Positions 39,650 through 64,000 are shown, numbered from the stretch's first letter. The stretch is 64,000 nucleotides of DNA from an uncultured bacterium (GCA_963851445.1 CAWKPH010000002.1:102183-166182); one strand, 5' to 3'. Translations and numbers: made by a program. The notes: generated by a model from the sequence alone, not told the origin.

Positions 39650-39715
39650 CATCGACATATGGGGCGAGATTCTGTTTAGTATAAAAACTGAGACCGCCTT
39701 GTTAGGGGCGGTCTC
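39650..39715 (+). repeat. Accessory-array repeat copy R1 (motif + terminator hairpin) at core/accessory boundary
   Basis: CATATGGGGCGAGATTCTGTTTAGTATAAAAACTGAG followed by hairpin GAGACCGCC-loop-GGCGGTCTC. On the - strand this is hairpin + AGTTTTTATAC, a terminator for the gene at 39744..40160. Confidence 0.55.
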
Positions 39716-39743
39716 GGGGAAAGTTTGAAAGAACGAGAGGCGA

Positions 39744-40160
39744 TTATTTCGCCTTCGAAGTCCGCACCGCCTTGAGGTATCTGCTATCTTCGCCGCGGGC
39801 CTCGCGATTCTTCGCGAGCTTCCGGCGTGCCGTGGCGACCTCGTCGGACGTACGCGCCCGGCGAACCACCTTCTTGGGAGGCAGCAGGATGTCATAGCCC
39901 TGCTGCGTATTGACCGAGATCTTGCCGGCCATGCTGGCCCGGAACAGAAGCACTTCGGCGCCTTTGGCGTAGGGACCTTTCCAGGCCACCTCGTCGAGGA
40001 GTCGATTGATGACCTCATCGATGACGCCCTGGTCTTTCGTGGCATGGGGGCCGAAAAGCTCGTAGGGGGCCATCGTCTGGACGACCCACTGGGAGCCCAT
40101 CTCACGCGGGGTGAGTTTGGTCTCGATGGGGTCGGTAGTGGGTACGTACGCGAGTGACAT
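39744..40160 (-). CDS. Hypothetical protein (GC-rich, Lys-rich C-terminus)
   Basis: 138-aa ORF in a visibly GC-rich segment. No recognisable motif. Confidence 0.45.
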   Translation of the reverse strand: MSLAYVPTTDPIETKLTPREMGSQWVVQTMAPYELFGPHATKDQGVIDEVINRLLDEVAWKGPYAKGAEVLLFRASMAGKISVNTQQGYDILLPPKKVVRRARTSDEVATARRKLAKNREARGEDSRYLKAVRTSKAK

Positions 40161-40320
40161 GGGAGGTTCTCCGCGATGCTGTCCTAAAAGGACGGTTTAT
40201 CCTGCATATAGACTAGCACGATTACTAAATATTGTCAAGCCTTGCCTTTCAATGCTTCTGCTTGAATGCTATAAAAAAGTCGCTGGGCGTACCCACCGAC
40301 TCTAACACTCACTGATAAAA

Positions 40321-41439
40321 CTATTCGCCAGGAGGCTCAAGCGTCATATCATTCATTGGGCCGAAGATGGTTTTACGTTCACCATCCTCAACGCGCCCGA
40401 CTTCGTGGGCTTCGTATCCCGTTATTTGTGCGATTCGTATGACCCTCTCGACTTCGCTTGCCGGAACGAAGATATAGTAACCGATGCCCCAGTTAAAGGT
40501 CGTCACGCAATCCCTGTCCGAGACACCAATTTCCTGCATGAAGCGGAAGAGCGTCGGCACTTCGGGCCAGGTATGGATGCGATAGGTGTGCGGGCGATGG
40601 TCAAACGAGATTTTAGCCACACCACTTCCAGTTCCCGGCAGAAGTGCGTGAATATCAATTTCCATCGTGAGCAGAGTTTCGACGAGTCTCACATAGCAGC
40701 GTGTCGGGATAAGCGCCTCTTCACCGAGCGTATTGCCGTTGGGCAATTTTGTAAGGAATTTGTCGGGCAACCCCAGTGCTCGTTTGATGACAAGCGATAC
40801 GCCATTAGCGTGAAGTCCGGAAGAGGTAACGCCAACGATTCGATCGCCTGTCGAAAGCTTCGTGCCATCGATAAGATTCCTGTTCGGCGCGATGAGGCCG
40901 GTGACACAACCACTAAGTGATGGGGCACTTGTGACGGGTTCCTGCGCTCGAATCAGATATTTGAGTGCAGGGGATTCACCAGCGACGAGCGCCATACCGG
41001 ACATCTCGCAGGCATCGTAGAAACCCTGAGCAAGATCTTCGGCGCGCTTTACATCCTGGAACCATTCGCTGTCTCCTGCAGCCACCTCGTCGACGTACGC
41101 AACAGGCATGGCGCCTTGAGCGATACAATCGTTGACCGCCATCATCGCGGTATCGATGCCGATGCCGCGATAGCGAGGATTGCCAGTCCCGTCGAATTGA
41201 TACATCCATTCGGCAATCCAGTTCTTGTTGCCGAGACCTTCGAGGGTATTGCACCAAGAATGAGAATGCCCGCCTTCGTACCGGAAGATTCCTCCATGCG
41301 AATGGAGCGCACTTGTATTTATGAACACCTGGCGGGCCCTCGGGAAGTGGGCAGTACGCCTGGCGGTCGCGATCATCGCAGCCTTGAAGGGCCCGATTTT
41401 GTCATAATCGACTCCTGCGTTCGCATATTCGCCTTGCAT
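40321..41439 (-). CDS. purM: Phosphoribosylformylglycinamidine cyclo-ligase (AIR synthetase)
   Basis: N-terminal YANAGVDYDKIGPF (YKDAGVDID-like) and C-terminal SSGLHANGVSLVIK (GLHSNGFSLVRK-like). PurM-length. Confidence 0.85.
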   Translation of the reverse strand: MQGEYANAGVDYDKIGPFKAAMIATARRTAHFPRARQVFINTSALHSHGGIFRYEGGHSHSWCNTLEGLGNKNWIAEWMYQFDGTGNPRYRGIGIDTAMMAVNDCIAQGAMPVAYVDEVAAGDSEWFQDVKRAEDLAQGFYDACEMSGMALVAGESPALKYLIRAQEPVTSAPSLSGCVTGLIAPNRNLIDGTKLSTGDRIVGVTSSGLHANGVSLVIKRALGLPDKFLTKLPNGNTLGEEALIPTRCYVRLVETLLTMEIDIHALLPGTGSGVAKISFDHRPHTYRIHTWPEVPTLFRFMQEIGVSDRDCVTTFNWGIGYYIFVPASEVERVIRIAQITGYEAHEVGRVEDGERKTIFGPMNDMTLEPPGE

Positions 41440-41613
41440 TTTCGCTCTCCTCTAGGGGTTGGTGGACTAATTTGTGCGATCTTGGCTTATCCTACAGAAG
41501 CTCACAAAGATAACAAGCGATTAACGTTTATCCATGGTAGGTTATTCCTAGACGAGCACCTTTGCGGGTGCTTTGTTGTTTGTCAATCTGCAGCCAATAG
41601 AGGAGATGCTGCC

Positions 41614-42645
41614 ATGTTGATCCGACTCTATCGTCGACTCCCTGGTCAGTACGACCTCGAGGAATGCTTCTATTTTGAATTCGCGGAGATGCCCGAACCT
41701 TCTGAGCTTGCGCTCTTGAGGTGGCTCATCGCTGAATCTTCGGAAGATGTCAGACATCATTCACACCTTCAAGGTGACGTGGTCGAGGTCGGTCCGCGGC
41801 TGTCAGTCGAGACCCCATTCTCTTCGAATGCGGTCGGCATCTGTCAGTCGATGGGCGTTCCCGTGCTACGGATCGAAAAATCTACACGGTATCCGGCTCA
41901 CAAGCCTGACTCTGTGAAGATCGATCCGCTCACGCAAGAAATCTATCCCGAGCCACTCACTACGTTTGGTTTGGGACACGACCCCGAACCCGTGCTCATC
42001 ATTCCGATTCTCCAAGACGGTGAGAAGGTGCTCGTCGCCGCAAACATCGTTCTGGGTCTTGGTATGGATACGGAAGACATCAAGTACTACACTCAGATGT
42101 TCCTCGGGCTCGGCCGCAACCCAACCGATGTCGAATTATTCCAGATCGGCAACGGAAACTCCGAACATAGTCGTCACCATTTTTTCCGCGGCATTCAAAT
42201 TATCGACGGTGTCCGGATGTCTGAGAGCTTGATGGATATTGTGAAAGCGGCCTGGAAAGCAAATCCGAACAATAGCCTGGTCGCGTTCCATGACAACAGC
42301 GGCGTGATTGAGGGGTGCGAGGTGCCCGTTCTGCTTCCGAGTAGACCTGGTCATCCTTCCTCCTTCTACATCGCGCCTATCATGCTCCACAAAACTATCA
42401 CCGCGGAGACACACAACCATCCAACGCTCATCGCACCATTCCCCGGTGCCAACACTGGCAGTGGGGGACGAATTCGCGATAACCGTGCGGTCGGTCGACA
42501 TCTCGCTATGATGCCGCATCCTGAACGGTGTTTCCTCCCGTGGCAGTGGCCATGGATGCCTGAAACGTGGCGTGCCACAATGAAGGTCTCTCCATGGTTG
42601 CAGATGTTCCAAAATGCGCGTACCTGGTGCCTTGAGCACTCGTAA
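41614..42645 (+). pseudogene. purL: FGAM synthase (purL, large type), in-frame internal deletion remnant
   Basis: The N-terminal ~330 aa is collinear with large PurL through NSEHSRHHFF and ETHNHPTLIAPFPGANTGSGGRIRD. It is then fused directly to the extreme C-terminus (MMPHPERCF...SPWLQMFQNARTW), so about 900 aa are missing. The 41116..41613 part of the track ORF is antisense to purM. Confidence 0.7.
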
Positions 42646-42732: not shown

Positions 42733-43230
42733 ATGCTTATCCTCCTCACGGGTCTTCCTGGTACTGGCAAGAGCACCATAGCGAATCTGCTTGCCGAAAA
42801 AACAGGAGGGTTAGTTATAAACTCAGATACTCTTCGTAAGGAGTTATTTCCAGTTAAAAGAACCTACTCTTCGATTGAAACTGGTATCGTCATTCAGGAA
42901 ACCGAGCGACTCGTTAGAGAAGCTCTCTTAGAAAACAAGACCGTCATTCTCGATGCGCTGTTCACTAAACAGGATGCACGCGATAAATATCAAAAATTGG
43001 CTCAAGAGTTGAAGGTTAGTTTTAAAGTGATTCTTGTCGGGGCACCTGAATCTCTTATCAAAGAGAGGTTGGATGAACGTTCCTTAGTCAATGACTCAAG
43101 TGAAGCAACCTTTGAAATCTATCTTGATAGAAAGAAGCATTTTGAAGCAGTGAATGGGGAACACCTAACTATTACAAACGAGGGAAGCCTCGAAGACCTG
43201 CGCACAAAGGTTGATGGTTTGAAAGTATAA
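42733..43230 (+). CDS. P-loop NTPase/kinase (AAA_33 / nucleoside-nucleotide kinase-like)
   Basis: Walker A GLPGTGKST at the N-terminus. 165 aa. Confidence 0.6.
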   Translation: MLILLTGLPGTGKSTIANLLAEKTGGLVINSDTLRKELFPVKRTYSSIETGIVIQETERLVREALLENKTVILDALFTKQDARDKYQKLAQELKVSFKVILVGAPESLIKERLDERSLVNDSSEATFEIYLDRKKHFEAVNGEHLTITNEGSLEDLRTKVDGLKV

Positions 43231-43267
43231 AAAGAAACCACCTCCTTCGCACGAGACGAAGGAGGTG
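43225..43267. terminator. Bidirectional terminator between convergent genes
   Basis: GTATAAAAAG-AAA-CCACCTCCTTCG...CGAAGGAGGTG. Read on the - strand it is hairpin + TTTCTTTTTATAC. Confidence 0.55.
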
Positions 43268-43299: not shown

Positions 43300-43686
43300 T
43301 TACTTCAGCTCCGCGGGCGGCGGTGCAACCTCGCACATTCCGCCCTCGCTTCCTGGCTCATCCTGCGCCCGCATGAGTCCCGTGCAGGCAAAAGGGAGAG
43401 AAGGCACCGGCGTCGATGAGTTGACGCTGGTGTCGAAGACGGCGCCGTGGACGACGTCGTACGTCGAGTGGGTGCCACTGGAACTCGTCACGTTGATGGT
43501 GAGGGTGCAGGGGTCGAAGCGGTTTTGGCATGCGCCGAGGATGAACGCGTCCGTGGCAGCTGTCTCGGCCGCGGCTCGGGCTGCGGTGGCAACCTTGGTG
43601 GCTTGGTAGCTTTCGATCGAAAAGCCGCCCGCCCCGCCGACGATGACCCCGATCACGAGGGCTGCAGCGATATTTCGGTTATTCAT
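43300..43686 (-). CDS. Hypothetical secreted/membrane-anchored protein (GC-rich)
   Basis: Start set at MNNRNIAAALVIGVIVGG (signal/TM). 128 aa. Confidence 0.4.
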   Translation of the reverse strand: MNNRNIAAALVIGVIVGGAGGFSIESYQATKVATAARAAAETAATDAFILGACQNRFDPCTLTINVTSSSGTHSTYDVVHGAVFDTSVNSSTPVPSLPFACTGLMRAQDEPGSEGGMCEVAPPPAELK

Positions 43687-43805
43687 CTGGAAACCTCTTT
43701 CTGGTGGGAACAAAAAATACTTCAAAAACAAGTTAACATGAATGTATAAAATTGTCAAGTTATCGACAACCCGAGAGCGGCTTTGGTTGTAATAAAAGAG
43801 AAATG

Positions 43806-45309: not shown

Positions 45310-45415
45310 ACACCTAATGATATACCGAAAATACTCCTAGTTTGTGAGAAAAATTCACACTTGGTATAAAAGAAGAAGCTTACGTCCCTGTGGATTTCAG
45401 CTTCTCATTTGGCGT

Positions 45416-45700
45416 TCAACCAGCGGGCACATATGCGGCGATGATTTTGTGGTTGGGGTCATCAGGATTGCTCATGACACGATCGAAAGTGCGCATTGCA
45501 TCTCGTTGAACAAAGGCTTGTCCTGCGGCGTCCACCAGTGTTCGTCCATACCCACAAATGTCAGCAGTGCCGGAATTCATCTTGTCGATATAGCCCTTCT
45601 TTCCTGGAAGACGGACTAGGAAGGGGCTAAGGCAGTTGGGATTGTGCTCAACGACATAAGTGCTCTGGGTGAGTCTTTCAAGTACTTCTGGCTCTGTCAT
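45416..45700 (-). CDS. Hypothetical protein
   Basis: 94-aa ORF with no recognisable motif. Confidence 0.4.
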   Translation of the reverse strand: MTEPEVLERLTQSTYVVEHNPNCLSPFLVRLPGKKGYIDKMNSGTADICGYGRTLVDAAGQAFVQRDAMRTFDRVMSNPDDPNHKIIAAYVPAG

Positions 45701-45780
45701 TTCAAAATTCCTTCAGGTCAAACTCTAATGACATAGTATATAAAACCAAAAGAAATACTACTTTTTCGCTGGCCCCGCGT

Positions 45781-45843
45781 CGCGTATGAGCTTAGAACTT
45801 ATTTGCTATAAAAAGAGCTGACATGCGGACGAAGACTCGTCGT
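45781..45843 (+). repeat. Array repeat R4 (motif + hairpin)
   Basis: CGTATGAGCTTAGAACTTATTTGCTATAAAAAGAG followed by hairpin GACGA-AGAC-TCGTC. Lies 3' of the - strand gene at 45867..46160. Confidence 0.55.
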
Positions 45844-45866
45844 TATGCCAGCCCTGCTAATGCCGT

Positions 45867-46160
45867 TTACTCAACCACTCGTAGAGGGGGCCGCGGAACA
45901 TCTTCAGCCACGCTGCCTTTGCCCCATTCGAGGTGAAAGTAGAACTCCCGAGTGTCGTCCACGGGCTTCCCCTGAAATACGAAGACGCCGTGCCTTCCGT
46001 CGTATTTCAGGCACCACCCGTTTGCAAATACTCTGCGCTCGGGCAGACCGCCAGCCACCGTGAAGCAATTGGTTTCAACAGGTGGTGTGAACTGATAATC
46101 CCGCCCCGGAACGAATCTCTCTTGGATGGGTCCGTCTTTTTCGGTAGCCATGAAATACAA
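45867..46160 (-). CDS. Hypothetical protein
   Basis: 97-aa ORF. Confidence 0.4.
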   Translation of the reverse strand: MYFMATEKDGPIQERFVPGRDYQFTPPVETNCFTVAGGLPERRVFANGWCLKYDGRHGVFVFQGKPVDDTREFYFHLEWGKGSVAEDVPRPPLRVVE

Positions 46161-46524
46161 CCTCCTTTGAGCTAATCATATTAAACCTAATTGACTTGTA
46201 TGTGTCAAGATTCTGGCATGATGTTACGCCGCGTTTAACTCAGGAATGAGTGCCATCGCAAGGCCCAAGATCTTCTCGAGATATTCGCTCAGCAAACAAA
46301 ACCTCCCCCTGTTCATCATAAAAAATCTTATCGACTGAGTATCGATGATATACTGCCATTGCATTCAAGGACTCTCTCGCTCTGTGATCCGTCCTCATGG
46401 ATCTCTAGTATCTCAAGTTCTAGGTTTCGGTATGCCGGCGGTCTTTCGCCACCTTCATTACTCTCTTTCAATGGTTGTTTGGGAAGTCCCTCAGATATAG
46501 AATCACTTTAACATTGAATCTTAG

Positions 46525-46550
46525 TGTGTATGAGGTTAGAATTTTGATAC
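46525..46550 (+). repeat. Array repeat R5 (5' half of motif, degenerate 3' half)
   Basis: GTGTATGAGGTTAGAATTTTGATAC in a divergent intergenic region. Confidence 0.45.
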
Positions 46551-46679
46551 AAACGGAGCACACAACGCTGCCCTCTACTCAAGGATTATTTAGGGTTAAA
46601 TATATTTTGACAAAATAGATTAAATGTATTATTTTGCTGCCAGAGAATCAACCCTGGACCAAGCATGGAAGGCTAAACA

Positions 46680-47612
46680 ATGGGGCTCGAAATAGTCATT
46701 GCTACTGCAATTGTATTGTTTCTCGTTTTGATTTTTTCACACATTTTGAGTCGGAAGAAGAAGCCCACAAAAAGCTCATCCGGCCAACTTGAGCCGTACG
46801 TTCAACGTGCTGAACTTGCGCCTCTTCCGCCACCCCGAGTTCTGGCATCGGCGTCCGCACCTGCTGCCCCGGCGATTTCACTGAACGAGGAACCATCCAC
46901 CAAGTCTGATGTGACCGAACAGGAATTGAGAAATCGTCTCTTCCGCGCAACAACGGAGGAGGAGTGTGCCGAGATCTACCACCAAGCCCCTTACGGGAGT
47001 GCTCTCGAGCGTGATGCCGTGAAGCGTCTCGACGGCTTCCTGCTGCAGCGTCTTGCAGCAGCCACTACGGTGGATGAGTGCGAGGAGATATGGAAAGATC
47101 ACCTCTCGGACGACAGCTCCATCGAAACTAGGGTTGACGACATGATCATTGCAATCCTCACGGGCGATCTCGCAACCGCAACGACGGTGGATGAGTGCGA
47201 GGAAATCTACGAACGCATTCCCAGCGACAACTTCGAGGAAAAGGGAAGTCTGGGCAAAAGCGTTGTCCTCAAAATGCTTGAACTTTCGACGACTAACGAG
47301 ATGTGCATCGATCTTTTCAACTACCTCGAAAATGACGAGATCGACAACGAGTTGTATGACAAGATTCTTCGAAAGGCGCTCGAGCTTGCCGAAACTTCGG
47401 ACGAATGTGGCGAAGTTGAAGCTCACTCATCGGAAGATTTTGGACCAGACGAGGATGAAGTTGGCCAACGCAAAGTCGAACTGGCGGAAACGCTCGAAGA
47501 ATGTATCGACATCTGGGAAGCCTGCGACGACACTGACAGTGTTGTGTATCGGGCAGCAATCTGCAAAGCGGCTGATATGATCCGAGCTGAGCAGGCAAAT
47601 ACAAAACAGTAA
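46680..47612 (+). CDS. Membrane-anchored acidic repeat protein (TT-x-DEC-EEI-Y/W repeats)
   Basis: N-terminal TM helix followed by about 6 imperfect ~30-aa repeats. Each carries an ATTVDECEEIW/Y-like Cys-containing box. Confidence 0.5.
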   Translation: MGLEIVIATAIVLFLVLIFSHILSRKKKPTKSSSGQLEPYVQRAELAPLPPPRVLASASAPAAPAISLNEEPSTKSDVTEQELRNRLFRATTEEECAEIYHQAPYGSALERDAVKRLDGFLLQRLAAATTVDECEEIWKDHLSDDSSIETRVDDMIIAILTGDLATATTVDECEEIYERIPSDNFEEKGSLGKSVVLKMLELSTTNEMCIDLFNYLENDEIDNELYDKILRKALELAETSDECGEVEAHSSEDFGPDEDEVGQRKVELAETLEECIDIWEACDDTDSVVYRAAICKAADMIRAEQANTKQ

Positions 47613-54435: not shown

Positions 54436-54471
54436 ACTTGCTTGGAAACATGCACAACGTTCATATGTTCA

Positions 54472-55121: not shown

Positions 55122-55132
55122 TGCATCTCCTC

Positions 55133-55507: not shown

Positions 55508-55562
55508 AGCCACGTCTCCTCTCTGTTGATCCGAGGGCACTATATCACATAAACACAGGGCG

Positions 55563-56399: not shown

Positions 56400-56433
56400 G
56401 TTGTGCAGTATAGCTCGTTGGTATATTTTCTCT

Positions 56434-56796: not shown

Positions 56797-56808
56797 GATA
56801 GCTATCTC

Positions 56809-57416
56809 ATGATAAAGGCTATTATTTTCGATTCAGATGGCATGCTTACTCTCGATACGAGATTCAGTTCTGTGTACGCTAATGAATACGGTATCTCAGT
56901 CGATGAAATGACCCCCTTCTTTGTGGGTCCTTTCAAAGATTGCTTGGTCGGTAAAGCTGACCTCAAAGAAGAACTGCAGAAAGGGTGGCTTGCCAAGTGG
57001 GGTTGGGATAAATCTGCTGATGAGTTATTGAAATATTGGTTCTCCGTAGGCAGTGCTCCTGATCCTGCAATTCTCGCCACTATTCTTGAGTTGCGAGATA
57101 GAGGCATCATTTGCGTGCTTGCAACTAATCAAGAAAAGTACCGTACCGACCACATGCTCAAAGAATTCGGCTACGCGGAGGTGTTTGATAAGGTTTTCTC
57201 CTCTGCCTATGTCGGTCACAAGAAGCCATCACGCGAGTTCTTTGACGAAGTGATGAGCTATCTTCAAAGCAAAGATCGACTATCACGAAAGAAGAAGTAA
57301 TGTTTTGGGATGACGATATTGGGAATGTTGAAGGAGCTAAAGAATTTGGCTTTGATGCGAACCAGTTTCTTGATGTTGAGAAGTACGAACAAACAATAAA
57401 TTCAAGAGCTAACTGA
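56809..57416 (+). pseudogene. HAD-superfamily hydrolase, apparently frameshifted
   Basis: Motif I IFDSDGML, motif II LATNQ and motif III Lys (HKKP) lie in frame 1, which ends at 57300. Motif IV EEVMFWDDDIGNVEGAKEFG continues in another frame from about 57279, implying a 1-nt indel near 57270-57280. Confidence 0.5.
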
Positions 57417-57417
57417 T

Positions 57418-57738
57418 ATGGAAAAACGATACAAGATTGTCGTCTACGTTCCTGAAAGCCATGCAGACAAACTCCGTGAAGCAATGGGTATCGCGGAAGC
57501 AGGGAAGATAGGTAACTATTCTCATTGTACCTTCAGCATCAAAGGCACCGGTCGTTTTAAGCCTCAGGAAGACTCACACCCGACGATTGGAGAAGTTGGA
57601 AAGCTTGAGGAAGTCTCTGAGGAACGCATTGAAACAGTATGCGAAGGTAGCAAGCTCCAAGAAATACTGAGAGCGATTCGTAAGGTGCATCCGTATGAGG
57701 AACCCGCGACCGATGTATATCTGCTTGAAAACATATGA
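57418..57738 (+). CDS. CutA/PII-like small protein (tentative)
   Basis: 106 aa. N-terminal beta-strand YKIVVYVPESHADKL and C-terminal HPYEEP resemble the CutA1 HPYEVPE motif. Confidence 0.35.
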   Translation: MEKRYKIVVYVPESHADKLREAMGIAEAGKIGNYSHCTFSIKGTGRFKPQEDSHPTIGEVGKLEEVSEERIETVCEGSKLQEILRAIRKVHPYEEPATDVYLLENI

Positions 57739-58310
57739 ACACAACCTGCATCATCATCCATGGCTGTCCTTCAAACGTCGAGAAAGCCATGGACCCCGAG
57801 ACACGGACATACGACAAGCACTGGATTCCATGGACGAAGAAAACTCTAACAGAGCTCGGCATCCCCACTGAAACCCCACTCATGCCTGATCCATGGGAAC
57901 CCTCGTATGAGAAGTTCAAAGCAGAGTTCGAGAAATACGAAGTAAACGAAGCAAGTATTCTCATAGGCCATAGCTGTGGGACAACGTTTCTTCTTCGATG
58001 GCTTGGGGAGTCAAAGCAGAAGATCGCCAAACTCATTCTTGTTGCACCATGGGCTATTGCTGATAAGGATGACGAAGCTCGCCGCAAGTTCTACGAACAT
58101 CCAATTGATCCATCTATCAAAGAAAGAGTCGGAGAAATTGTTCTTTTTACTGCAGACGACGAAGACCCCGATGGCAAAGAGAGTCTCAAGATAATTCATG
58201 ACGTTATAGGTGGCAAAATCATCGAACTCCCTCACCATGGCCACTACACCATGGATGATATGGGAACAGTGGAGTTTCCCGAGCTTATTAAAGAAGTTGT
58301 AGAAGTCTAA
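57735..58310 (+). CDS. Alpha/beta-fold serine hydrolase (RBBP9/YdeN-like)
   Basis: GHSCG nucleophile elbow with downstream Asp/His. 191 aa. Confidence 0.65.
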   Translation: MNTTCIIIHGCPSNVEKAMDPETRTYDKHWIPWTKKTLTELGIPTETPLMPDPWEPSYEKFKAEFEKYEVNEASILIGHSCGTTFLLRWLGESKQKIAKLILVAPWAIADKDDEARRKFYEHPIDPSIKERVGEIVLFTADDEDPDGKESLKIIHDVIGGKIIELPHHGHYTMDDMGTVEFPELIKEVVEV

Positions 58311-58751
58311 ATATGAGCAGCCAACCACAAAACGCACCACAGGAGGTACTCGATGACGGTAGCGGCGGGACCACAGTCATTGATCCTGCGGCGCAGGTTC
58401 AGGGTGTAGCGGCCAATGCCGCAGCCGCTGGCCAATTCATCGCCGCCATGGCCGGATTTGCTGGAATGCATGGGAGCGGTCTGGCCGGCAGCTCTTTCGA
58501 GACCTGGCGCGGCGTGCAAGTCGGCCTGGCGGTGCCGAGGATTCAGGAAGCCTGAAGCTTCCCTCAAAACGGCGGTGCTCCTGCCCGGATTCGTCTGAAC
58601 TCTTCGGTGACTCGGATGTTGAGCGGTTGTCCCCGCCGCATCACTGACGAGTTCCTACTCTCGTCTTTGCCATTCTCTCCGTTATACAATAATCCAGCGA
58701 ATGGTATAATAAAATATAGTGAAAGAAAAAAACAGTCTCGCGTTCTATCTG

Positions 58752-59036
58752 ATGATATCCCTTCCGGCGGTCGTGATTATTTATGTCTACATCAGCGCTA
58801 TATTGGCTGATTTTTCTAACCTACAAGTGTGGCTCCCATCTACAGATCAACTTGGATATATATATTATATATTCGCCGGACTTATCGTTTCAATTGTAAA
58901 CTTTGTTAGATCTGGACTCCGCATATTCCTATTCAGCTTGCTTGCCATCCCGATCGGGCTGTTCGCTGTCTTCGTCATGGAACAGGTGCTTATAATTATA
59001 CAAGTAATGCTGACGATCGCATTGCAGGGGCCATAA
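58752..59036 (+). CDS. Hypothetical small membrane protein
   Basis: Three TM helices. Preceded by TTATAC-17-TATAAT. The track ORF begins at an upstream GTG (58719). Confidence 0.35.
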   Translation: MISLPAVVIIYVYISAILADFSNLQVWLPSTDQLGYIYYIFAGLIVSIVNFVRSGLRIFLFSLLAIPIGLFAVFVMEQVLIIIQVMLTIALQGP

Positions 59037-59298
59037 CCAGACTCTAGGGCTTTGGCCATCGGCCATAGGACGTCGACGCACCAGTCAGTCTTCCGGGGCC
59101 GCCTTCAAGGACTCCCTCCGCGGCGGAGCGTTTTATGCCCGATCATTTCGTCCCGACCATGCGATAGGGGATAAGTCGAACGGGCACGTCGAGGCCCGCG
59201 ACAAGCAGGGCCGCTCTCAGTGAAGAGGCGCTCGACGAGGTGATGGAGCAGAACCGCGACCGGTACTGCGGCACACTTGACGATGTGGTCGGCTTTGA

Positions 59299-59778
59299 TT
59301 TTTCACCCGAAGCGACGGCCGAAGCGCCGACGACGGCCAGACAAGCAAGCCCGCCCTCGTCATACGAGGCCGTGCCGACGAGCGGGCAATCGCCGAATCG
59401 CTGGAGGGCGCGGCAGCAAAGATCGAAACCGAGCTACGGGAGCTAACCGGCCTTCGCCTTCGCGCCGTCATTTCGGATGAGGAATTCTTGGACGAGCGAC
59501 GACGGCTTGCGATGGAGCGGGCGTTGCTGACGGAAAAGTTGGCGAACGCGGCTAAATCACATTCTCGGTTCGAACCCGCACAGGCCCTCATCTCGTTCAG
59601 CAACCAGGCCGTCGATTGGTTTTCGCGTGGCGATGACCGTGTTCGCCGCCTCATCATGGAAATCGTCGGTTCGAACCCCGTGCTGAAAGGCCAAATCCTC
59701 AGCGTTCAAGCGGCGAAACCGTTCACGCTCGCGAGCCATTTTACGCTCTGTCCAGACCCGTATGATAGAGGAGGTTAG
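59299..59778 (+). pseudogene. Possible C-terminal remnant of a large serine recombinase (DUF4368-like coiled-coil domain)
   Basis: Open frame without a proper start. LRLRAVISDEEFLDERRRLAMERALL ... RRLIMEIVGSNPVLKGQILSV resembles the recombinase C-terminal domain. No catalytic or zinc-ribbon region present. It reads into repeat R11. Confidence 0.3.
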
Positions 59779-59841
59779 AACGTGGATGGTATAAAAAGAG
59801 CGCCCCAGACACATAGTCCGAGGCGGCTTTACTTACGGGGC
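59756..59841 (+). repeat. Array repeat R11 (full consensus + hairpin)
   Basis: CCCGTATGATAGAGGAGGTTAGAACGTGGATGGTATAAAAAGAG followed by CGCCCC...GGGGCG. Confidence 0.65.
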
Positions 59842-60438
59842 GAAAAACTCGATCAAGTATTCGTCATCAATTCGACTGGCAGCAGCGTGCAAGAAAGCTC
59901 GCACGACCAGAGGTTCGCTACGCTTGGTTACATAGCGCAGAGACGAGAGAAGTCGAGGCTCATGAATCAGAGATTGGCTTAGGGTCGTCCGAAGACATTC
60001 CCGCAAACTCTTTTGCTCGCTCTCTGTAAGGCGGACTTTCTTCAAAAGAGCGCGAGTGAAAATGTTGTCATTACTGCAACCCCGAACGGATGCTCGAATA
60101 ATTGGTTGCCAAAGAGCAGCACGAGTAGTAGGGAAGCCGCCGTTTTTCGGAATCTCGTCTCCTTTTGCGGGCCTGGGGATTTCCGGGACGAGCGCGAGAA
60201 GCTCGATGGCTTTTTGTCCCTGAACGAAATTGCGATCGTCTCCGTCCTCATCGGTTGCGAAACTCACTCCTCGCAGTTGCTCAAGACGCAATACCTTGTC
60301 GAGTAGGATGGGAACATATCCTGCAATACGAGCGTCACTTGCATAACGACGCTTGAGATCTTTTTCGAACGCTGTTTGGAGTACTTGATACTCCTGACTC
60401 GCTGCTTCCAGTAGAGCAGGGTCAATTTGTTTCAACAT
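59833..60438 (-). CDS. Hypothetical protein
   Basis: 201-aa ORF. Preceded by TTGTGA-17-TACTGT and a GAAAGGG RBS. Confidence 0.45.
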   Translation of the reverse strand: MLKQIDPALLEAASQEYQVLQTAFEKDLKRRYASDARIAGYVPILLDKVLRLEQLRGVSFATDEDGDDRNFVQGQKAIELLALVPEIPRPAKGDEIPKNGGFPTTRAALWQPIIRASVRGCSNDNIFTRALLKKVRLTESEQKSLRECLRTTLSQSLIHEPRLLSSLRYVTKRSEPLVVRAFLHAAASRIDDEYLIEFFAP

Positions 60439-60543
60439 GATAAAACCCTTTCAATTCTTCCGTGGAAAAGGACCGGTGATCCTTGGACAATGTCCTCGTG
60501 AACAGTATCACCCCTATATGACGCTCACAACCTTCACCAGCTC

Positions 60544-60610
60544 CATATGATAGAGGACTTAGAACCTATGTGACGGCATAAGAAAACAGCGCGATCTTCG
60601 CAGATCGCGC
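60544..60610 (+). repeat. Array repeat R12 (motif + hairpin)
   Basis: CATATGATAGAGGACTTAGAACCTATGTGACGGCATAAGAAAACAG followed by CGCGATCT-TCGC-AGATCGCG. Confidence 0.65.
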
Positions 60611-60628
60611 CGTAGGGAGGGGTCAGAA

Positions 60629-61231
60629 TTAATCAAAGAGCCACGCGTTCGGATTCAGAACTCGGTACTCATCTGGGCTGATGATCACCGTGAACGCCGA
60701 CAGAATCGCTTGGGCGATAATTGATTCGCGGTCGAGCACCCCCTTAGAGAGAAACTTGTGCGGATCCTTCTCGCCGCCACCAGCCCGTTCTTGGACGATC
60801 ACGCCAAGCTCGGAGTCTTGTTCTTTCACCGCTCTAACCATCGAGGTTGGTACGGGTAGGGCTGCGCCAAGGGAAAGCCCTAAGACCTGCCAGCGTGGAT
60901 AGACAATAGCGACTGCGGGGGGATCAAACCAGTTGGGTCGATGCTCGTTAAGCGATACGCTAAAGAGACCGTTTTCGATCCCGATGCCAATGTGGGCATC
61001 ATGAGCTTCACGAGCTGCTTTGGCGCGGTTAAGAGCGCCAGTAAACATCTGTTCAAGGCCGAATGGTTGAGAGGGTATACCCGACTCGGTCTCGCCAGTG
61101 TGTAACTCGTATGCTGAAAGAGCGAGGTCGCCAAGATGAGTTATGCCACGCTCTTGCAATTGGCTGAGTGCCGACTCAACCGCACGGATTTTAAGGGCAC
61201 TTTTCGTACCCACTGCGATGACGATGGTCAT
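60629..61231 (-). CDS. Non-canonical purine NTP pyrophosphatase, YjjX family (inosine/xanthosine triphosphatase, DUF84)
   Basis: GIPSQPFGLEQMFTGALNRAKAAR and IGIENG align with YjjX [24 protein letters not shown] and VAIEAG. Confidence 0.7.
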   Translation of the reverse strand: MTIVIAVGTKSALKIRAVESALSQLQERGITHLGDLALSAYELHTGETESGIPSQPFGLEQMFTGALNRAKAAREAHDAHIGIGIENGLFSVSLNEHRPNWFDPPAVAIVYPRWQVLGLSLGAALPVPTSMVRAVKEQDSELGVIVQERAGGGEKDPHKFLSKGVLDRESIIAQAILSAFTVIISPDEYRVLNPNAWLFD

Positions 61232-61293
61232 TCCTAATCCCCTGGATGTAACTGTGATCTGTTCGGTACTATGCCATGGATAGAGAATAAACG

Positions 61294-61360
61294 CACGATA
61301 GAGGATGTTAGAACGTGGATGGTATAAAAAGAGCGCCCGGCCAGTTGCCTGGTCGAGCGC
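61294..61360 (+). repeat. Array repeat R13 (full consensus + hairpin)
   Basis: CACGATAGAGGATGTTAGAACGTGGATGGTATAAAAAGAG followed by CGCCCGGCCAG-TTGC-CTGGTCGAGCG. A GATAGAG half-copy lies just upstream (61279-61287). Confidence 0.65.
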
Positions 61361-61378
61361 TAGATTGTCGTCGGACTC

Positions 61379-61858
61379 CTAGGAGTCCTTAACGTAATCG
61401 TCACCATGGTCACCCACGATGGGAGGAATCTGGACAGAGAGGAAGTACAGGATGCCGCCAGCCTCCACCCTGAAGCCATGGATCTCGCCCGCACGAATCA
61501 AGACGGTAGCTCCAACACTGAGTGGACGCCACAGCCCCATGAGGAAAACGGAAGCATTGCGTGGTGGCTCGAAGTCCCATTCTGGTCCCAGAACGATAAC
61601 AGCGGCATCGCTCTGGTTGTGATGGTGTAGTTCATTCGACAAATCCTTTTTCACGCGGATAATCTCCGCCTGACAGAGGTCGACGTTGAAATCGTAAGGT
61701 GCCACCAAGGGTTCGAGAGCATCTGCTTCCAAGCTCCACTTCTCGAACCCATGATAGTTTGCGTATGGAAGCCAGTCGAGATTTCTCATCCCTGGCCGGC
61801 TGCATAGAGCAGCGTGTAGCTGTCCCGCCAAGAGCAAGACTTCTTCGGTGTATCTCAT
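61379..61858 (-). CDS. Hypothetical protein, possibly cupin fold
   Basis: 159 aa. His cluster LHHHNQSD followed by beta-rich sequence. Its stop sits in the perfect palindrome GGACTCCTAGGAGTCC. Confidence 0.35.
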   Translation of the reverse strand: MRYTEEVLLLAGQLHAALCSRPGMRNLDWLPYANYHGFEKWSLEADALEPLVAPYDFNVDLCQAEIIRVKKDLSNELHHHNQSDAAVIVLGPEWDFEPPRNASVFLMGLWRPLSVGATVLIRAGEIHGFRVEAGGILYFLSVQIPPIVGDHGDDYVKDS

Positions 61859-61913
61859 CCCAAGCTCCGATGTGGTTGAAGCGATCTAAAATAGTTATAC
61901 TTAAAGATAGATC

Positions 61914-61985
61914 TTGTGTCAAATCAGGCTCCGCCTTGTGTATATAAATAAAAAAGCCGCCTTCTGCTGTTGCTTCAGGCGACAT
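61914..61985 (+). repeat. Degenerate array repeat R14
   Basis: TTGTGTCAAATCAGGCT...GTGTATATAAATAAAAAAG followed by GCCGCC...GGCGAC. On the - strand this is hairpin + TTTTTTATTTATATAC, a terminator for the gene at 62004..62270. Confidence 0.4.
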
Positions 61986-62003
61986 TGATCCTGTGGGATC
62001 GCA

Positions 62004-62270
62004 CTACTTCGGAGAGAACTCCTCGAACAATTCATCTAGAGTGAGAGATAGGGTGAGAGAATGGACTTTCCCTTCGGATTCAAGTCGCAGCACATTGGCC
62101 ACGACCATGCAGCGACGGTCGAATGCTCTAACTCGCTCCTTAAGACTAGGCGGCTGTTTGTCGCCTGTCATCCACTCTAGCCACTCAAGATCGTTACCGT
62201 CGCTCCAGAAACCACTGAGCCAGACTCTCTGACCAGTTTCAGCCTCTAAAGCACTGGCTCTCTCAAGCAA
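62004..62270 (-). CDS. Hypothetical protein
   Basis: 88-aa ORF. Confidence 0.35.
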   Translation of the reverse strand: MLERASALEAETGQRVWLSGFWSDGNDLEWLEWMTGDKQPPSLKERVRAFDRRCMVVANVLRLESEGKVHSLTLSLTLDELFEEFSPK

Positions 62271-62355
62271 CGCTGCACAGCCCTCAAATCCTCGTTTCCG
62301 AAGATCCTCAGCACTGTGCTCTACACGATTTGGGATTGGGACATGCTATCCTCCT

Positions 62356-62628
62356 GTGTCTAAAGCTGCCCGAAATTATTATAACATTAGCTCCGTCTCG
62401 TGTGGCGGCTTTACATATAAATCTTGTAAACCAGGATATACTTTCAGTATGAAAAGCTTCATCAACGAAGTTGGTAATAAAATCAGCGTTGAAGTTACCG
62501 AACAGGTGATTAATGGAGTAGATGGAATCTTAATCGCCATAGAGGGCCCAACCTCACAGACTGAGATTCATATCACACGCATGGAGGCCAAGATTCTCTT
62601 GGAGCAGTTGGGTGATCTATTAAAGTGA
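62356..62628 (+). CDS. Hypothetical protein
   Basis: 90-aa ORF. An internal Met at 62449 is an alternative start. Confidence 0.3.
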   Translation: MSKAARNYYNISSVSCGGFTYKSCKPGYTFSMKSFINEVGNKISVEVTEQVINGVDGILIAIEGPTSQTEIHITRMEAKILLEQLGDLLK

Positions 62629-62631
62629 CAG

Positions 62632-63123
62632 CTACTTAGAGTTTTTGTAGAAAGGTTCTCGAGGGTGTTCACTCATTAATTTTTCAATACGTTCCGAGAG
62701 CCATTGGAAGTATTCACCCATATACGGGTCGTACTCACGGATTTCACTAAAAACAGTCTGGTATTTCTTCCAGGTTACTGTAACCCAAGCGCCGAGGGTT
62801 TTCTCCACGAGGCTAAGGCTTATGAGATTGCTCGCCACAAGCATACCCAGCGATTCCATCTGCTGCGCAAATTGTGTGAACTTGATCCGGTCGGTCTCAG
62901 AAAGTGCTCCTAGTTCATCTCTAGTCGTAGGCATATTCTTTGACATGACAAAATATAAAAGCTCAGAGAATTCCCGAGTTTGAAAGGTACGCAACGCATC
63001 GAGCGTCACATTCGTCCTTCTGTCGCGCGCAGCTCCTCGTATCTGCGCAATACCAAATACGAGCGCTACAACAACCGAAAGCGCCAACGAGAGGTTAGCA
63101 ATGTTTGTAATGAGATCGCTCAT
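62632..63123 (-). CDS. Hypothetical membrane-anchored protein
   Basis: N-terminal TM (IANLSLALSVVVALVFGIAQI) followed by a soluble helical domain. 163 aa. Confidence 0.4.
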   Translation of the reverse strand: MSDLITNIANLSLALSVVVALVFGIAQIRGAARDRRTNVTLDALRTFQTREFSELLYFVMSKNMPTTRDELGALSETDRIKFTQFAQQMESLGMLVASNLISLSLVEKTLGAWVTVTWKKYQTVFSEIREYDPYMGEYFQWLSERIEKLMSEHPREPFYKNSK

Positions 63124-63175
63124 GATGTCAGGATTCTATCACAGGTCTTTTTTATAAGAATTTCCTTGGTTCCCC

Positions 63176-63247
63176 TCGTGTATGAACTTATAACGTGGGT
63201 GACATGAAAAAAACCGCAGGAAAGGGAATCGGACCCTTGTCCCGCGG
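63176..63247 (+). repeat. Array repeat R15 (variant + hairpin)
   Basis: CTCGTGTATGAACTTATAACGTGGGTGACATGAAAAAAACC followed by CCGCAGG...CCCGCGG. Lies 3' of the gene at 63275..63997. Confidence 0.5.
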
Positions 63248-63274
63248 CTAAAGTACTAAACTGTGGCGTGCTTA

Positions 63275-63997
63275 TCACTGTGTCTGCAGTTCGTGTTGGC
63301 GCTTGAGAGCCTCGGCGAAAAGCTCAGCCTTGACATCGTCCCGGCTGCTCGTATACCTGCTACCTACCCAGGCCAAAACAAAGTCGGGGTGGGTGAGTAG
63401 GTACCCGAACTCGCCGAAGCTCATGATCCAGGGGCTTGTAAGGTTATAGGTACCGCCATAGCCGCCGATCACGCTTCCACCGACTTTGTCGTCGAAGACC
63501 ACCGTGAGATGATCTTCACCCTTCACGACCTCGCCGAGGACGAATTCTTTTTCGGTCTCCCGGTTACGCTCTTGGCCGACGTAGCACACAACGCGTTCGC
63601 CAACTTTATAGGGTAGATCACAGAAGTTGCGGCGATCTGGGGTGAGCGGCTTGACTTCAGCCTGCTTGGCGAGCGAAAGCAGAGTTCTGATTTTGCGATC
63701 CTCGATCTTCTTTCGCCTCACTACCTTATCTCGCGCTCGCGCTATAGCGGCTCGCATTTTATCGAACTGCTCCGACGTCATGGTCTTGAAGATACAAGGC
63801 GAGTTGAACTGCCGCGTCTGGCCTTTGCCCATCTCGAACCTGCAGGTCGGCTTGAACATGTAATCGTAGCCGCACCGCCCGAGACTTGATGAACCGTGTT
63901 CGCACCACCCACAAAAGTTGAAGGTCGTGGCGCCACATTTCCGTTTGATCGACTCTGCGTCGAACGGCTCGGGATAGCGGTCTCCCCGCTCAATCAT
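63275..63997 (-). CDS. Hypothetical protein with Cys-rich N-terminal region (possibly zinc-binding); may extend past window end
   Basis: 240 aa. N-terminal CGATTFNFCGWCEHG...CGYDYMFKPTCRF...SPC cluster. The ORF start is 3 nt from the window edge. Confidence 0.45.
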   Translation of the reverse strand: MIERGDRYPEPFDAESIKRKCGATTFNFCGWCEHGSSSLGRCGYDYMFKPTCRFEMGKGQTRQFNSPCIFKTMTSEQFDKMRAAIARARDKVVRRKKIEDRKIRTLLSLAKQAEVKPLTPDRRNFCDLPYKVGERVVCYVGQERNRETEKEFVLGEVVKGEDHLTVVFDDKVGGSVIGGYGGTYNLTSPWIMSFGEFGYLLTHPDFVLAWVGSRYTSSRDDVKAELFAEALKRQHELQTQ

Positions 63998-64000
63998 GTC

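Follow-up and report, generated by a model that had tools for sequence, protein, structure and literature searches.

A 24-kb stretch of the chromosome of a bacterium of the candidate phyla radiation (CPR; Patescibacteria) is built of small, self-contained gene units separated by one conserved box of 40-45 bp that always points in the same direction and that also marks similar arrays in distant CPR lineages. The arrangement looks like a gene-cassette collection system but not a classical integron, and no enzyme responsible for it was identified. With moderate confidence, we consider the box most likely to be the double-strand, site-specific recombination junction of an integron-like accretion system, although no recombination event was shown.

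A directional box confined to the accessory array

We analyzed a stretch of 64,000 nucleotides (the window; positions are counted from its first base), in which a preliminary description had reported at least 12 co-oriented copies of a repeat of about 40 bp, each followed by a different hairpin, within a cassette-like region. That observation is real. Seventeen copies or half-copies of one box lie at 39664-63212, all on the + strand, with none in the 39-kb housekeeping part. The full form is GCTCC-N6-[ATAGAGGAnG or GTGTATGAGG]-TTAGAAC-nTGnnTGGTATRAAAAG. An nhmmer profile recovered all 12 of the copies originally listed, returning 12 hits with E<1.3 at 45781-63212 and R1 at E 2.6, all on the + strand, and nothing better than E 16 anywhere in 1-39000 or on the - strand. 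The consensus as first written proved too strict, only 2 copies falling within 3 mismatches of its 22-mer, because the left part of the box comes in two subtypes, GTGTATGAGG and ATAGAGGAnG. R1, first placed at 39650, is degenerate and sits at 39664-39690. Copies not listed previously are a full one at 51509-51548, a left half at 50437-50454, and right halves at about 40267, 43223 and 45362. The boxes and the associated features are as follows.

38437-39645 (+), last housekeeping-side gene (C39 peptidase-TPR), marking the left boundary of the array; its orthologues in relatives have other downstream genes and no boxes
39664-39690 (+), box R1, degenerate (GGGGCGAGATT, a 5-nt gap, CTGTTTAGTATAAAAAC), starting about 20 nt after the stop of the last core gene and followed by a bidirectional terminator hairpin at 39691-39716
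40255-40279 (+), right-half box (TGCTATAAAAAAG), followed by the terminator hairpin of the - strand gene 40321-41439
43211-43236 (+), right-half box (AAGTATAAAAAG; probably the degenerate copy first designated R3), followed by the terminator hairpin of the - strand gene 43300-43758
45350-45375 (+), right-half box (TGGTATAAAAGA), followed by a hairpin downstream of the - strand gene 45416-45700
45776-45816 (+), box R4, followed at about 45814-45853 by the terminator hairpin of gene 45867-46160 (-)
46525-46560 (+), box R5, without a terminator, followed by a sigma-70-type promoter (TTGACA-17-TATTTT, 46607-46635) of the + strand gene 46680-47612
49837-49873 (+), box R6, abutting the promoter TTGACA-17-TATAAA of the + strand gene at about 49949-50296
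50437-50454 (+), left half plus core only (GTGTATGAATTTAGAAC); the stop codon of the - strand gene 50447-51589 overlaps the core
51509-51548 (+), full box, followed at about 51548-51581 by the terminator hairpin of gene 51604-51771 (-)
51993-52027 (+), box R7, with a 3-nt deletion, followed by the terminator at 52025-52062 of the response-regulator gene 52081-52461 (-)
52531-52571 (+), box R8, followed by the terminator at 52570-52594 of purD 52607-53887 (-); the promoter of the next gene lies at 52521-52494 on the - strand
53968-54004 (+), box R9, without a terminator, followed by the + strand NUDIX gene 54019-54435
54469-54505 (+), box R10, followed by a terminator at 54505-54524 (-)
59756-59799 (+), box R11, followed by the terminator at 59801-59825 of gene 59833-60438 (-)
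60544-60583 (+), box R12, with a 1-nt deletion in the core, followed by the terminator at 60586-60613 of the NTPase_I-T gene 60629-61231 (-)
61289-61332 (+), box R13, 41 of 42 nt identical to R11, followed by the terminator at about 61331-61360 of gene 61379-61858 (-)
62632-63173 (-), DUF4760 cassette (promoter plus gene)
63169-63212 (+), box R15, followed by the terminator at about 63213-63248 of the 331-aa gene that runs off the window; the left edge of this box is where homology with the relative L026 begins

The array continues past the end of the window, since contig L001 shows a further box about 270 nt beyond base 64000. Gene G+C in the array ranges from 42 to 62%, against 46% for the core, and, counting against the cassette reading, a box-free stretch of 5.3 kb (54.5-59.7 kb) holds eight genes.

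Terminators and promoters at the junctions

Thirteen of the 17 copies are followed by a different stable hairpin that ends in the T-run on the - strand and is the intrinsic terminator of a - strand gene; five of these are among the six best-ranked - strand sites of a terminator scan. R5, R6, R9 and the copy at 50437 have no such hairpin and are followed by + strand genes or by a gene end. The promoter of the next gene follows, so that each module is its own transcription unit. The hairpins are ordinary terminators belonging to the cassette genes and are not part of the repeat. A "second box" previously noted upstream of some copies, TTGTCAAATCAGG, is the -35 hexamer (TTGACA / CTGACA on the - strand) of predicted promoters of the next gene; it is inverted between R7 and R8 and is hence not a second directional element.

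These features bear on the possibility, named in advance as the outcome that would overturn a cassette reading, that the box is a generic REP/BIME/MITE-like repeat providing terminators throughout the genome. Its association with hairpins and T-runs, and the inclusion of the terminator T-run in the conserved right half, would agree with that view. However, the hairpins are all different and only the flank is conserved, four window copies have no hairpin at all, orientation is uniform within each array, and no copies occur in the 39-kb core or in about 60 kb of relatives' chromosome, the remainder of the genome not having been scanned. We regard this explanation as very unlikely.

Occurrence of the box in other CPR lineages

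The same box, 92-100% identical over 31-39 nt, marks direct-repeat arrays of small unrelated genes in other CPR contigs (Yanofskybacteria, Saccharibacteria and others). Between contigs L005 (a Yanofskybacteria MAG) and L007 (a Saccharibacteria MAG) 37/39 positions are identical, between L010 and L020 32/32, and between L007 and L013 35/38, while the flanks are unrelated. In these contigs the boxes are again direct repeats between small unrelated genes, with 5 in 3 kb in L010, 3 in L012/L020, 3 in L007 and 4 in L026; the genes include methyltransferases, Fic, TspO, His_Phos, NYN, TauE, HIT and 2-thiouracil desulfurase. By contrast, the box is absent from about 60 kb around the orthologous C39-TPR gene in three closer relatives (L016, L018 and L019). 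The strict pattern was found in only 3 real genome contigs among 185,579 species representatives and in about 6 metagenome contigs, which fits a rare accessory system rather than a general signal.

Comparison among copies shows that homology breaks right after GTTAGAAC: three L010 copies share the left arm and core but carry another common right flank. Module-wise variation between related genomes had been proposed as a test of the cassette reading, and one cassette recurs in a relative with different neighbours. The DUF4760 cassette is 85% identical in nucleotides to L026 6933-7473, where both neighbours are different genes, and homology starts about 14 nt from the box core, at the GTTCC/GCTCC motif. 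Only this one boundary coincides with a box, however, the other lying at the stop codon, and the 14 nt between GCTCC and the core are not shared either. At least one array gene (50447-51589) has a homologue next to the C39-TPR gene in a relative, so the content is not all foreign.

Search for a recombinase

No recombinase or transposase domain was found in the array ORFs that were scanned (30 with Pfam, 10 each with NCBIfam and PHROGs, and 3 against PDB sequences), tblastn with a Xer-like query found nothing in the window, and none was found in most related contigs. A recombinase beyond the window end, with an adjacent attI-like site, had been anticipated; sequence there was not read for one, and the absence of an IntI integrase, a tyrosine recombinase with the IntI-specific extra domain, within the window leaves undecided whether one adjoins the array. 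In L020/L012 the array starts with a Xer-like tyrosine recombinase that has its own palindromic dif-like site, followed by direct half-sites GTCGCACAATGTTAAC that share ATGTTA and a GTT..AAC core with the box. The L020 recombinase scores 209 bits with XerC/XerD models, whereas the IntI model TIGR02249 scores 90 bits against a cut-off of 265. It belongs to a highly conserved CPR Xer-like family of about 8000 proteins (the top 120 at 76-82% identity), whose use of the box was not assayed. The family is ubiquitous in CPR and often not next to boxes: L022 has only weak box-like hits (E 0.68 and above), and L024 has a single divergent box about 8.6 kb downstream of the recombinase gene. The link of this family to the box is therefore circumstantial.

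The box as a probable recombination junction

The preliminary interpretation, that of a site-specific cassette array with one conserved recombination or insertion site regenerated per module, is supported in part. The boxes are directional and confined to the array, each lies between the terminator of one unit and the promoter of the next, the modules are small, functionally unrelated and compositionally mixed, the geometry is not that of attC, and no integrase lies in the window; the conservation of the box in distant lineages and the recurrence of one cassette, with homology starting at the box, add support. Each module is a complete transcription unit, with its own promoter, one or a few genes and its own intrinsic terminator, and consecutive modules are joined through one asymmetric double-strand site, most likely of att type. 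In the mechanism that we propose, a Xer/IntI-family tyrosine recombinase supplied in trans would bind the conserved left arm (..TGGACGAT / ..GAGGAnG) and exchange strands in or next to the quasi-palindromic core GTT-AG-AAC; recombination between two direct boxes would release a circle carrying one box, and recombination of that circle with any resident box would insert it and regenerate a box on each side. The analysis itself documents the repeat, its polarity, its confinement to arrays, its position between terminator and promoter, its conservation across CPR lineages, the break of homology at the core, and one cassette shared between two different contexts, whereas that recombination happens, where crossover occurs and which enzyme acts are our inferences. 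No circular or empty-site form was seen.

Sequence resemblances offer further support. The core GTTAGAA fits the integron core GTTRRRY at 6 of 7 positions; GTTAGAA(C) is found in most copies, with the variants GTTAGAAT, CTTAGAAC, GTTCGAAC (L026) and GTTAAC (the second family in L020). ACGATGTTA equals the IntI1-binding repeat CGATGTTAC of attI1, and attC(aadA7) ends in GCGTTAGAC, these sequences being read from primers in PMC2811028. The XerD arm TTATGTTAAAT of E. coli dif is similar. Against this, the box has no dyad symmetry of the kind a tyrosine-recombinase core site usually shows: in the consensus TGGACGAT-GTTAGAAC-CTGTTTGG only GTT/AAC is symmetric.

A coding imprint in the box

The box also reads like the C-terminal codons of a gene (L-R/P-x-L-D/N-D-V-R-T-C-L-V-stop), a property that is unexplained. 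In its + orientation second codon positions are the least variable (0.24 against 0.33 and 0.37; permutation p = 0.024). The Thr codon appears as ACC, ACG or ACT; the Arg codon as AGA or CGA (L026), and as CGG, CGA or CGC further upstream; the stop is TAA or TGA; Val changes to Leu, Ile, Phe or Met by first-position changes; and the deletion in R7 is of 3 nt. This imprint suggests that the site originally overlapped the 3' end of a gene, as many integrase attachment sites do.

An alternative that we consider unlikely is that the boxes are inert scars, displaced copies of the last 40-45 nt of a protein-coding target gene left by serial integration of elements that each carried a replacement 3' end, as phages 21 and e14 do at icd, and that have since decayed to their cargo genes; the array would then record past events without being a working cassette system. 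The degenerate copies and half-sites, as well as the imprint, agree with this. However, no copy out of about 40 has a long in-frame ORF upstream, and no protein with this C-terminus was found among 5.8 billion proteins (E up to 10), in PDB sequences, or in IMG/VR by back-translated patterns. No array whose proximal end is visible starts with such a gene (C39-TPR in the window, an HtrA-like gene in L010, Xer in L020). Modules of 0.5-1.5 kb without any integrase remnant are unusually small for decayed integrative elements, and 92-100% conservation of the box between phylum-level lineages is hard to reconcile with neutral scars.

It is improbable, but was also considered, that the repeat is conserved because it encodes a functional micro-peptide of 8-17 codons, for example MDDVRTCLV, MNDVRTCLV, MIEEVRTWMV, MYEVRTYV or MLSILLHWLEEVRTCFV. 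Beyond the same imprint, by our count about three quarters of the copies have ATG, GTG or CTG two to four codons upstream of VRT, and two L026 copies give 17-codon ATG ORFs. Yet the start position and start codon are not conserved (ACG, GCG, CGG, TGG and TTT also occur), no ribosome-binding site is present, in most CPR copies the box lies between two terminators with no room for a promoter, and some copies have premature stops (R8) or read on without a stop (R9, L014-536).

A possible polar protein-binding site

A further possibility, which we hold doubtful, is that the box is a polar protein-binding site not involved in recombination, such as a replication-fork barrier (Ter-like), or an insulator or regulatory site separating transcription units in a terminus-proximal accessory region. 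The site is asymmetric, all copies in an array face the same way, and it is always intergenic, between a terminator and the next promoter. The array in the window begins where gene orientation switches from all + (33 of the 35 ORFs of at least 150 aa listed in 39 kb are on +, and the 2 on - lie inside + strand ORFs) to mostly -; cumulative GC skew stops rising at about 28 kb, well before the array starts at 39.6 kb. In L020 and L024 boxes lie on the same contig stretch as a dif-like site and a Xer gene, within 3.4-6.2 kb downstream of the gene in L020 and about 8.6 kb downstream in L024, and in L026 the core sits a fixed 23-24 nt upstream of the -35 hexamer of the next gene in three of four boxes. 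The core GTTAGAAC resembles the GTTGTAAC core of E. coli Ter sites; this is the only basis for a Tus-Ter comparison, which was not tested, no complete genome with an array having been examined. A fork barrier of that type is defined by a Ter consensus bound by a Tus or RTP protein, with sites flanking the terminus in opposed orientation. Contrary to this reading, the box is rare among CPR genomes and so is not a housekeeping function, L006 has boxes in both orientations within 100 nt, and spacing to promoters is not constant in the window (24 nt at R8, 16 nt at R7), other boxes (R5, R6) abutting promoters on the opposite side. Nor does it explain why homology between contexts starts at the box or why the right flank can be swapped (L010), and no Tus-like or other candidate binding protein is known for CPR.

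Comparison with known systems

Chromosomal integron cassette arrays and CALINs (attC clusters lacking an integrase) likewise have one directional site between consecutive small modules of mostly one gene, with unrelated functions and mixed composition, in an array starting at a core/accessory boundary; the lack of an integrase inside 24 kb is as in a CALIN or a long sedentary array, the sequence beyond the window not having been read for one. However, no attC, defined as an imperfect palindrome R''-L''...L'-R' of 57-141 nt that folds as a single strand, was found, and the box has no R''/L'' partner. The best match to the reverse complement of the core and arm is no better in 25-170 nt upstream than downstream (8-10 of 15 in both), and MFE folds of either flank leave the box unpaired in about 30 of 32 copies, the exceptions being L006 (two inverted boxes) and L012-8449. 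The site is instead a simple asymmetric duplex of about 45 bp, with conservation extending 20 nt or more on both sides of the core. Integron cassettes are mostly promoterless, co-oriented and read from Pc, whereas these cassettes carry their own sigma-70-type promoters and terminators, both gene orientations occur, and most genes are on the strand opposite to the one the GTTRRRY orientation would predict. The only recombinase seen at the head of a related array is Xer-like.

Xer-dependent modules, namely the pdif modules of Acinetobacter plasmids and IMEX arrays at dif (CTX/TLC, gonococcal island), are comparable in that gene modules without their own recombinase are bounded by short sites used by a host-encoded Xer recombinase, direct dif-like repeats accumulate at one locus, and an ATGTTA half-site is present; in L020, L022 and L024 a palindromic dif-like site and direct half-sites flank a CPR Xer gene. 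The box nevertheless lacks the two inverted 11-bp arms around a 6-8-bp centre that form a 28-30-bp site of this type, pdif sites alternate in orientation whereas the boxes are all direct, no Xer gene and no CPR dif-like site is present in the window, and the box and the CPR dif-like half-sites are distinct families.

Island accretion at the 3' end of a tRNA, tmRNA or protein gene (tycheposon islands of Prochlorococcus; phage 21 and e14 at icd) similarly gives arrays of direct repeats that are copies of a gene's 3' end, with cargo genes between them, and the box repeat carries a coding imprint. Here, however, ARAGORN and Rfam found no tRNA or tmRNA similarity at or near any box, no intact target gene was found at any array end, no integrases lie between the repeats, and the modules are far smaller. 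REP/BIME and uptake-sequence terminators are also short conserved sequences associated with intrinsic terminators in intergenic regions, but in the array described here the hairpin is variable and the flank conserved, and the copies are confined to arrays and co-oriented.

Organization of the repeat and its boundary with the chromosomal core

The window, from a CPR bacterium, divides into a housekeeping part and an accessory array, with gene orientation changing at the start of the latter. In the core, 33 of the 35 ORFs of at least 150 aa listed are on the + strand, and the two on the - strand lie inside + strand ORFs; in the array most genes are on the - strand. Cumulative GC skew stops rising at about 28 kb, and the array may lie at or near the replication terminus. 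Array genes range from 42 to 62% G+C, against 46% for the core. The features to which we refer are as follows.

1-39645: housekeeping genes, including dnaK, Asn/Asp- and Glu-tRNA synthetases, leucyl aminopeptidase, an ABC exporter, a histidine kinase and an M23 peptidase, with one tRNA-Tyr
38437-39645: last gene on this side, a C39 peptidase-TPR protein whose named homologues come from Candidatus Paceibacterota, Wolfebacteria, Sungbacteria and "Patescibacteria group"; the identical protein sits on a contig of 174,784 bp
39744-64000: the array side, over which genes are mostly on the - strand
About 40267, 43223 and 45362 (+): right halves of the repeat
40321-42645: purL-like pieces on opposite strands (G+C 54%), namely an AIRS/AIRS_C protein of 372 aa on the - strand and a + strand ORF in which the FGAR-AT N-terminal and linker domains are joined to only the last ~45 residues of the GATase_5 domain; either a rearranged purL or an unusual split arrangement
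46937-47206, inside ORF 46680-47612: three in-frame copies of a 39-nt segment spaced 114-117 nt apart (repeat family D5), indicating a repeat-domain protein with no database match
50437 (+): left half of the repeat
50447-51589 (-): unannotated array gene, 68% identical in nucleotides over 696 nt to a gene (8927-9900 of the related contig L018) directly upstream of the C39-TPR orthologue in a relative, so that part of the array content is native to the lineage or has been relocated
51509 (+): full copy of the repeat

The repeat reported in the preliminary description is real: a repeat search and an nhmmer profile built from the copies recovered every copy listed there, with 12 hits at E<1.3 between 45781 and 63212 and the copy at the core boundary (R1) at E 2.6. 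All are on the + strand, and nothing comparable appears in 1-39000 or on the - strand. The full unit, here termed the box, is GCTCC-N6-[ATAGAGGAnG or GTGTATGAGG]-TTAGAAC-nTG-nn-TGGTAT(A/G)AAAAG. Relaxed searches added the full copy and the left and right halves itemized here, again all on the + strand, for a total of 17.

Thirteen copies are followed by a stable hairpin, different each time, that ends exactly at the T-run when read on the - strand, and five of these are among the six best-ranked - strand sites of a terminator scan. Each of these hairpins lies just downstream of a - strand gene, examples being purD, a response regulator, an NTPase_I-T protein and DUF4760. Three copies (R5, R6 and R9) have no hairpin and are followed by + strand genes whose sigma-70-type promoters abut the box. 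A second short box, described initially as recurring upstream of the repeat, proved to be the -35 hexamer of the promoter of the next gene, and is inverted between copies R7 and R8. Beyond base 64000 the sequence was examined only through the identical short Logan contigs L001 and L027 from sample ERR11630394; L001, which is identical to the window end, shows a further box about 270 nt past that base.

Distribution of the box in other lineages

An exact-pattern scan of one genome per species gave six contigs, of which three are chance matches in coding DNA. Two of these (L002 and L003), together with L008 from a metagenome scan, are gammaproteobacterial matches falling in what we read, by resemblance to the N-terminus of E. 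coli LpxK, as the N-terminal coding region of lpxK-like genes (WLERVWYKNG); matches in contigs L004 and L009 are also taken as occurring by chance in coding DNA. The other three contigs, from a Yanofskybacteria MAG, a Saccharibacteria MAG and a MAG labelled Bdellovibrionales, are real: each has two or three copies, and the conservation extends beyond the pattern. The metagenome scan gave six more real contigs, and later look-ups added the contigs L020, L024, L025 and L026. No match was found in phage and plasmid collections, and a literature search revealed nothing on CPR integrons or on this motif.

In these contigs the unit reads [terminator-like hairpin]-N~10-GCTCC-N6-TGGACGAT-GTTAGAAC-CTGTTTGGTATAAAAAAG-[terminator of a gene on the other strand]. 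Between contigs of different lineages similarity is confined to the box: the Yanofskybacteria contig L005 against the Saccharibacteria contig L007 is 37/39, L010 against L020 is 32/32, and L007 against L013 is 35/38. The boxes are again direct repeats between small unrelated genes, with five in 3 kb in L010, three in L012/L020, three in L007 and four in L026. The terminator-like hairpin to the left of the box is itself a recurring sequence in L010, L011, L012/L020, L014, L015 and L024, where ACCAAAAAACCGCC-TTCTT-GGCGATTTTTTT and AAAAACTGCCCAGCGATGGGCGTTTTT occur several times per contig. In L026, a relative, the box core is the perfect palindrome GTTCGAAC at 4930, 5700 and 6480, a constant 23-24 nt upstream of the TTGACA/TTGACT -35 hexamer of the next gene.

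Scattering of copies over unrelated loci had been specified at the outset as the result that would indicate a generic REP/MITE-like terminator repeat. It was not observed in the DNA examined: besides the lack of comparable hits in 1-39000, the orthologous C39-TPR neighborhoods of three relatives (L016, L018 and L019) have no box in about 60 kb. The box is therefore not a general CPR intergenic signal but is rare and confined to arrays, and we consider a REP-like repeat very improbable.

Alternative identities considered for the box

Several other attributes were examined and rejected. The box does not correspond to a canonical attC site, since no inverse-core partner is found on either side beyond chance, and folding of either flank leaves the box unpaired in all but two of 32 copies. 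ARAGORN and Rfam searches revealed no tRNA, tmRNA, RNase P or other RNA gene fragment at or near any box; these searches included a GC-rich non-coding stretch of 470 nt just before the box in L025. Nor is the box a promoter for a downstream gene in a fixed orientation, because genes lie on either strand relative to it; phage-specific, sigma-54, ECF and archaeal-type promoters were ruled out by spacing and orientation, the box pointing on the + strand into the 3' end of convergent genes.

A hidden recombinase among unannotated array ORFs was also sought. No array ORF that was scanned matches a recombinase or transposase in Pfam, NCBIfam, PHROGs or PDB sequences (their structures were not predicted, for lack of alignments), and tblastn with a Xer-like query is negative, in agreement with the initial statement that no integrase lies inside the window.

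Evidence bearing on recombination

Several lines of evidence bear on whether the box is a recombination junction. First, homology breaks at the core: three copies in L010 keep the left arm and GTTAGAAC but continue with a different shared 40 nt. These copies form a 66-nt repeat (2100-2165, 3013-3079 and 3982-4047), 89-94% identical, that consists of the box left arm plus core joined to a different right flank, reads as (M)GHIVDDVRTKIMEAGEVYVPDL.. and follows three different genes.

Second, one cassette recurs in another context. A 90%-identity cluster mate of the DUF4760 protein lies on L026, from another sample. Nucleotide homology is 85% over 541 nt and covers exactly the promoter plus gene (window 63173-62633), starting about 14 nt from the box core at the GTTCC/GCTCC motif and ending at the stop codon, and the genes on both sides differ. 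Only one boundary is at a box, so this observation is suggestive rather than proof.

Third, a recombinase heads one related array. In L020/L012 the order is housekeeping genes, a palindromic site GTCGCACAATGTAGGTTAAGCGAC, a 337-aa Xer-like recombinase, direct half-sites GTCGCACAATGTTAAC, cassettes, and then three boxes. In NCBIfam this recombinase scores 209 bits for XerC/XerD and only 90 bits for IntI. The same palindrome lies just upstream of the orthologous recombinase in two further contigs, L022 and L024, an arrangement that recalls the dif site beside the recombinase gene of some single-Xer bacteria, and similar half-sites lie downstream, resembling elements integrated at dif. Across these three unrelated contigs (L020 8570-8593, 9747-9762 and 12155-12170; L022 9623 and 11151; L024 9931, 11236 and 19526) the dif-like palindrome precedes the gene and direct half-sites GTCGCACAAT(G/A)TTAAC downstream flank accessory or phage-like genes, which looks like a single-recombinase Xer/dif module with elements integrated at dif. 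Phage structural genes also lie a few kb from boxes or dif-like sites in L025 (500-11800 and 14706-14732), where they include terminase, portal, capsid and adaptor genes, and in L024 (1-9200), which has a tail tube gene and a NUMOD3-domain (homing-endonuclease-type) gene.

Fourth, the recombinase family is very conserved, the top 120 hits being 76-82% identical across Nealsonbacteria and Wildermuthbacteria among others. That would fit an equally conserved site; however, the family is widespread and is not always next to boxes. Finally, the box resembles recognized recombinase-binding sequences. It shares ATGTTA and a GTT..AAC core with the half-sites of L020/L012; its ACGATGTTA equals the IntI1-binding repeat of attI1; and its GTTAGAA fits the integron core, attI1 having AAAGTTAGGC and attC(aadA7) having GCGTTAGAC (PMC2811028). 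This points to a Xer/IntI-type enzyme as a lead, rather than constituting a test.

A coding imprint within the box

In its + orientation the box reads as the end of a protein, L-(R/P)-x-(L/I/M)-(D/N/E)-(D/E)-V-R-T-(C/W/Y)-(L/M/F)-(V/T)-stop, a feature for which we have no explanation. Second codon positions are the least variable (0.24 against 0.33 and 0.37; permutation p = 0.024 in the core). Thr is encoded by ACC, ACG or ACT; Arg by AGA or CGA, and by CGG, CGA or CGC at the upstream Arg; the stop is TAA or TGA; Val changes to Leu, Ile, Phe or Met; and copy R7 lacks exactly three bases.

Yet no copy has a long ORF upstream, and no protein with this tail was found. In a search for a gene ending in ..DDVRTCLV, a concatenated 184-aa query gave nothing at E up to 10, PDB gave only chance hits, and two back-translated scans of IMG/VR gave nothing. 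The box does not represent the 3' end of the neighboring C39-TPR gene, as the C-termini of 114 homologues do not match, nor that of the CPR Xer gene, whose C-termini are ..NKRLRDIHRQFHSGKNLKE. The simplest reading is that the site descends from an attachment site overlapping the 3' end of a gene, although the further proposition that the boxes are merely inert att scars seems to us unlikely. A translated micro-ORF is less likely still, and we regard it as improbable, because most CPR copies lie between two terminators.

Interpretation and relationship to known systems

CPR/Patescibacteria have tiny genomes, depend on hosts, and are thought to gain functions mainly by gene transfer, yet very little is known about how they capture genes. 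The array described here stacks nucleotide-metabolism genes (purD, purL-like pieces, two NUDIX hydrolases, an ITPase-like NTPase and a kinase) and many unknown genes behind one conserved site, which recurs in Yanofskybacteria-, Saccharibacteria- and Paceibacteria-type contigs. If this short and well-defined site is a recombination junction, it defines a gene-cassette system outside the attC/IntI paradigm, and would give a simple sequence tag for finding the mobile gene pool of CPR bacteria in metagenomes.

A more far-reaching possibility, which we offer only tentatively, is that CPR bacteria possess a previously undescribed cassette-capture system, in which complete promoter-gene-terminator units would be exchanged between lineages as box-bearing circles and stacked head to tail at a ~45-bp double-strand site with an integron-like GTTAGAA core. 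In this view the recombinase would be supplied in trans, possibly by the very conserved CPR Xer-like enzyme, with no attC folding involved, and the system would be a functional analogue of the integron that annotation tools based on attC and IntI cannot see.

The preliminary interpretation of the locus as a site-specific cassette array is supported in part. The arrangement of the boxes and modules was observed directly, whereas the mechanism that joins them is our inference, in which we place only about even confidence; among the alternatives, a polar protein-binding or fork-barrier site is regarded as unlikely, less so than a micro-ORF or a REP-like repeat but more so than inert scars. The architecture is that of a cassette-accretion array joined by one directional site. 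It differs from an integron in having no attC, no IntI in the window, and cassettes that are not promoterless; from a dif-type site in the absence of dyad arms; and it likewise does not satisfy the criteria for a tRNA-island array.
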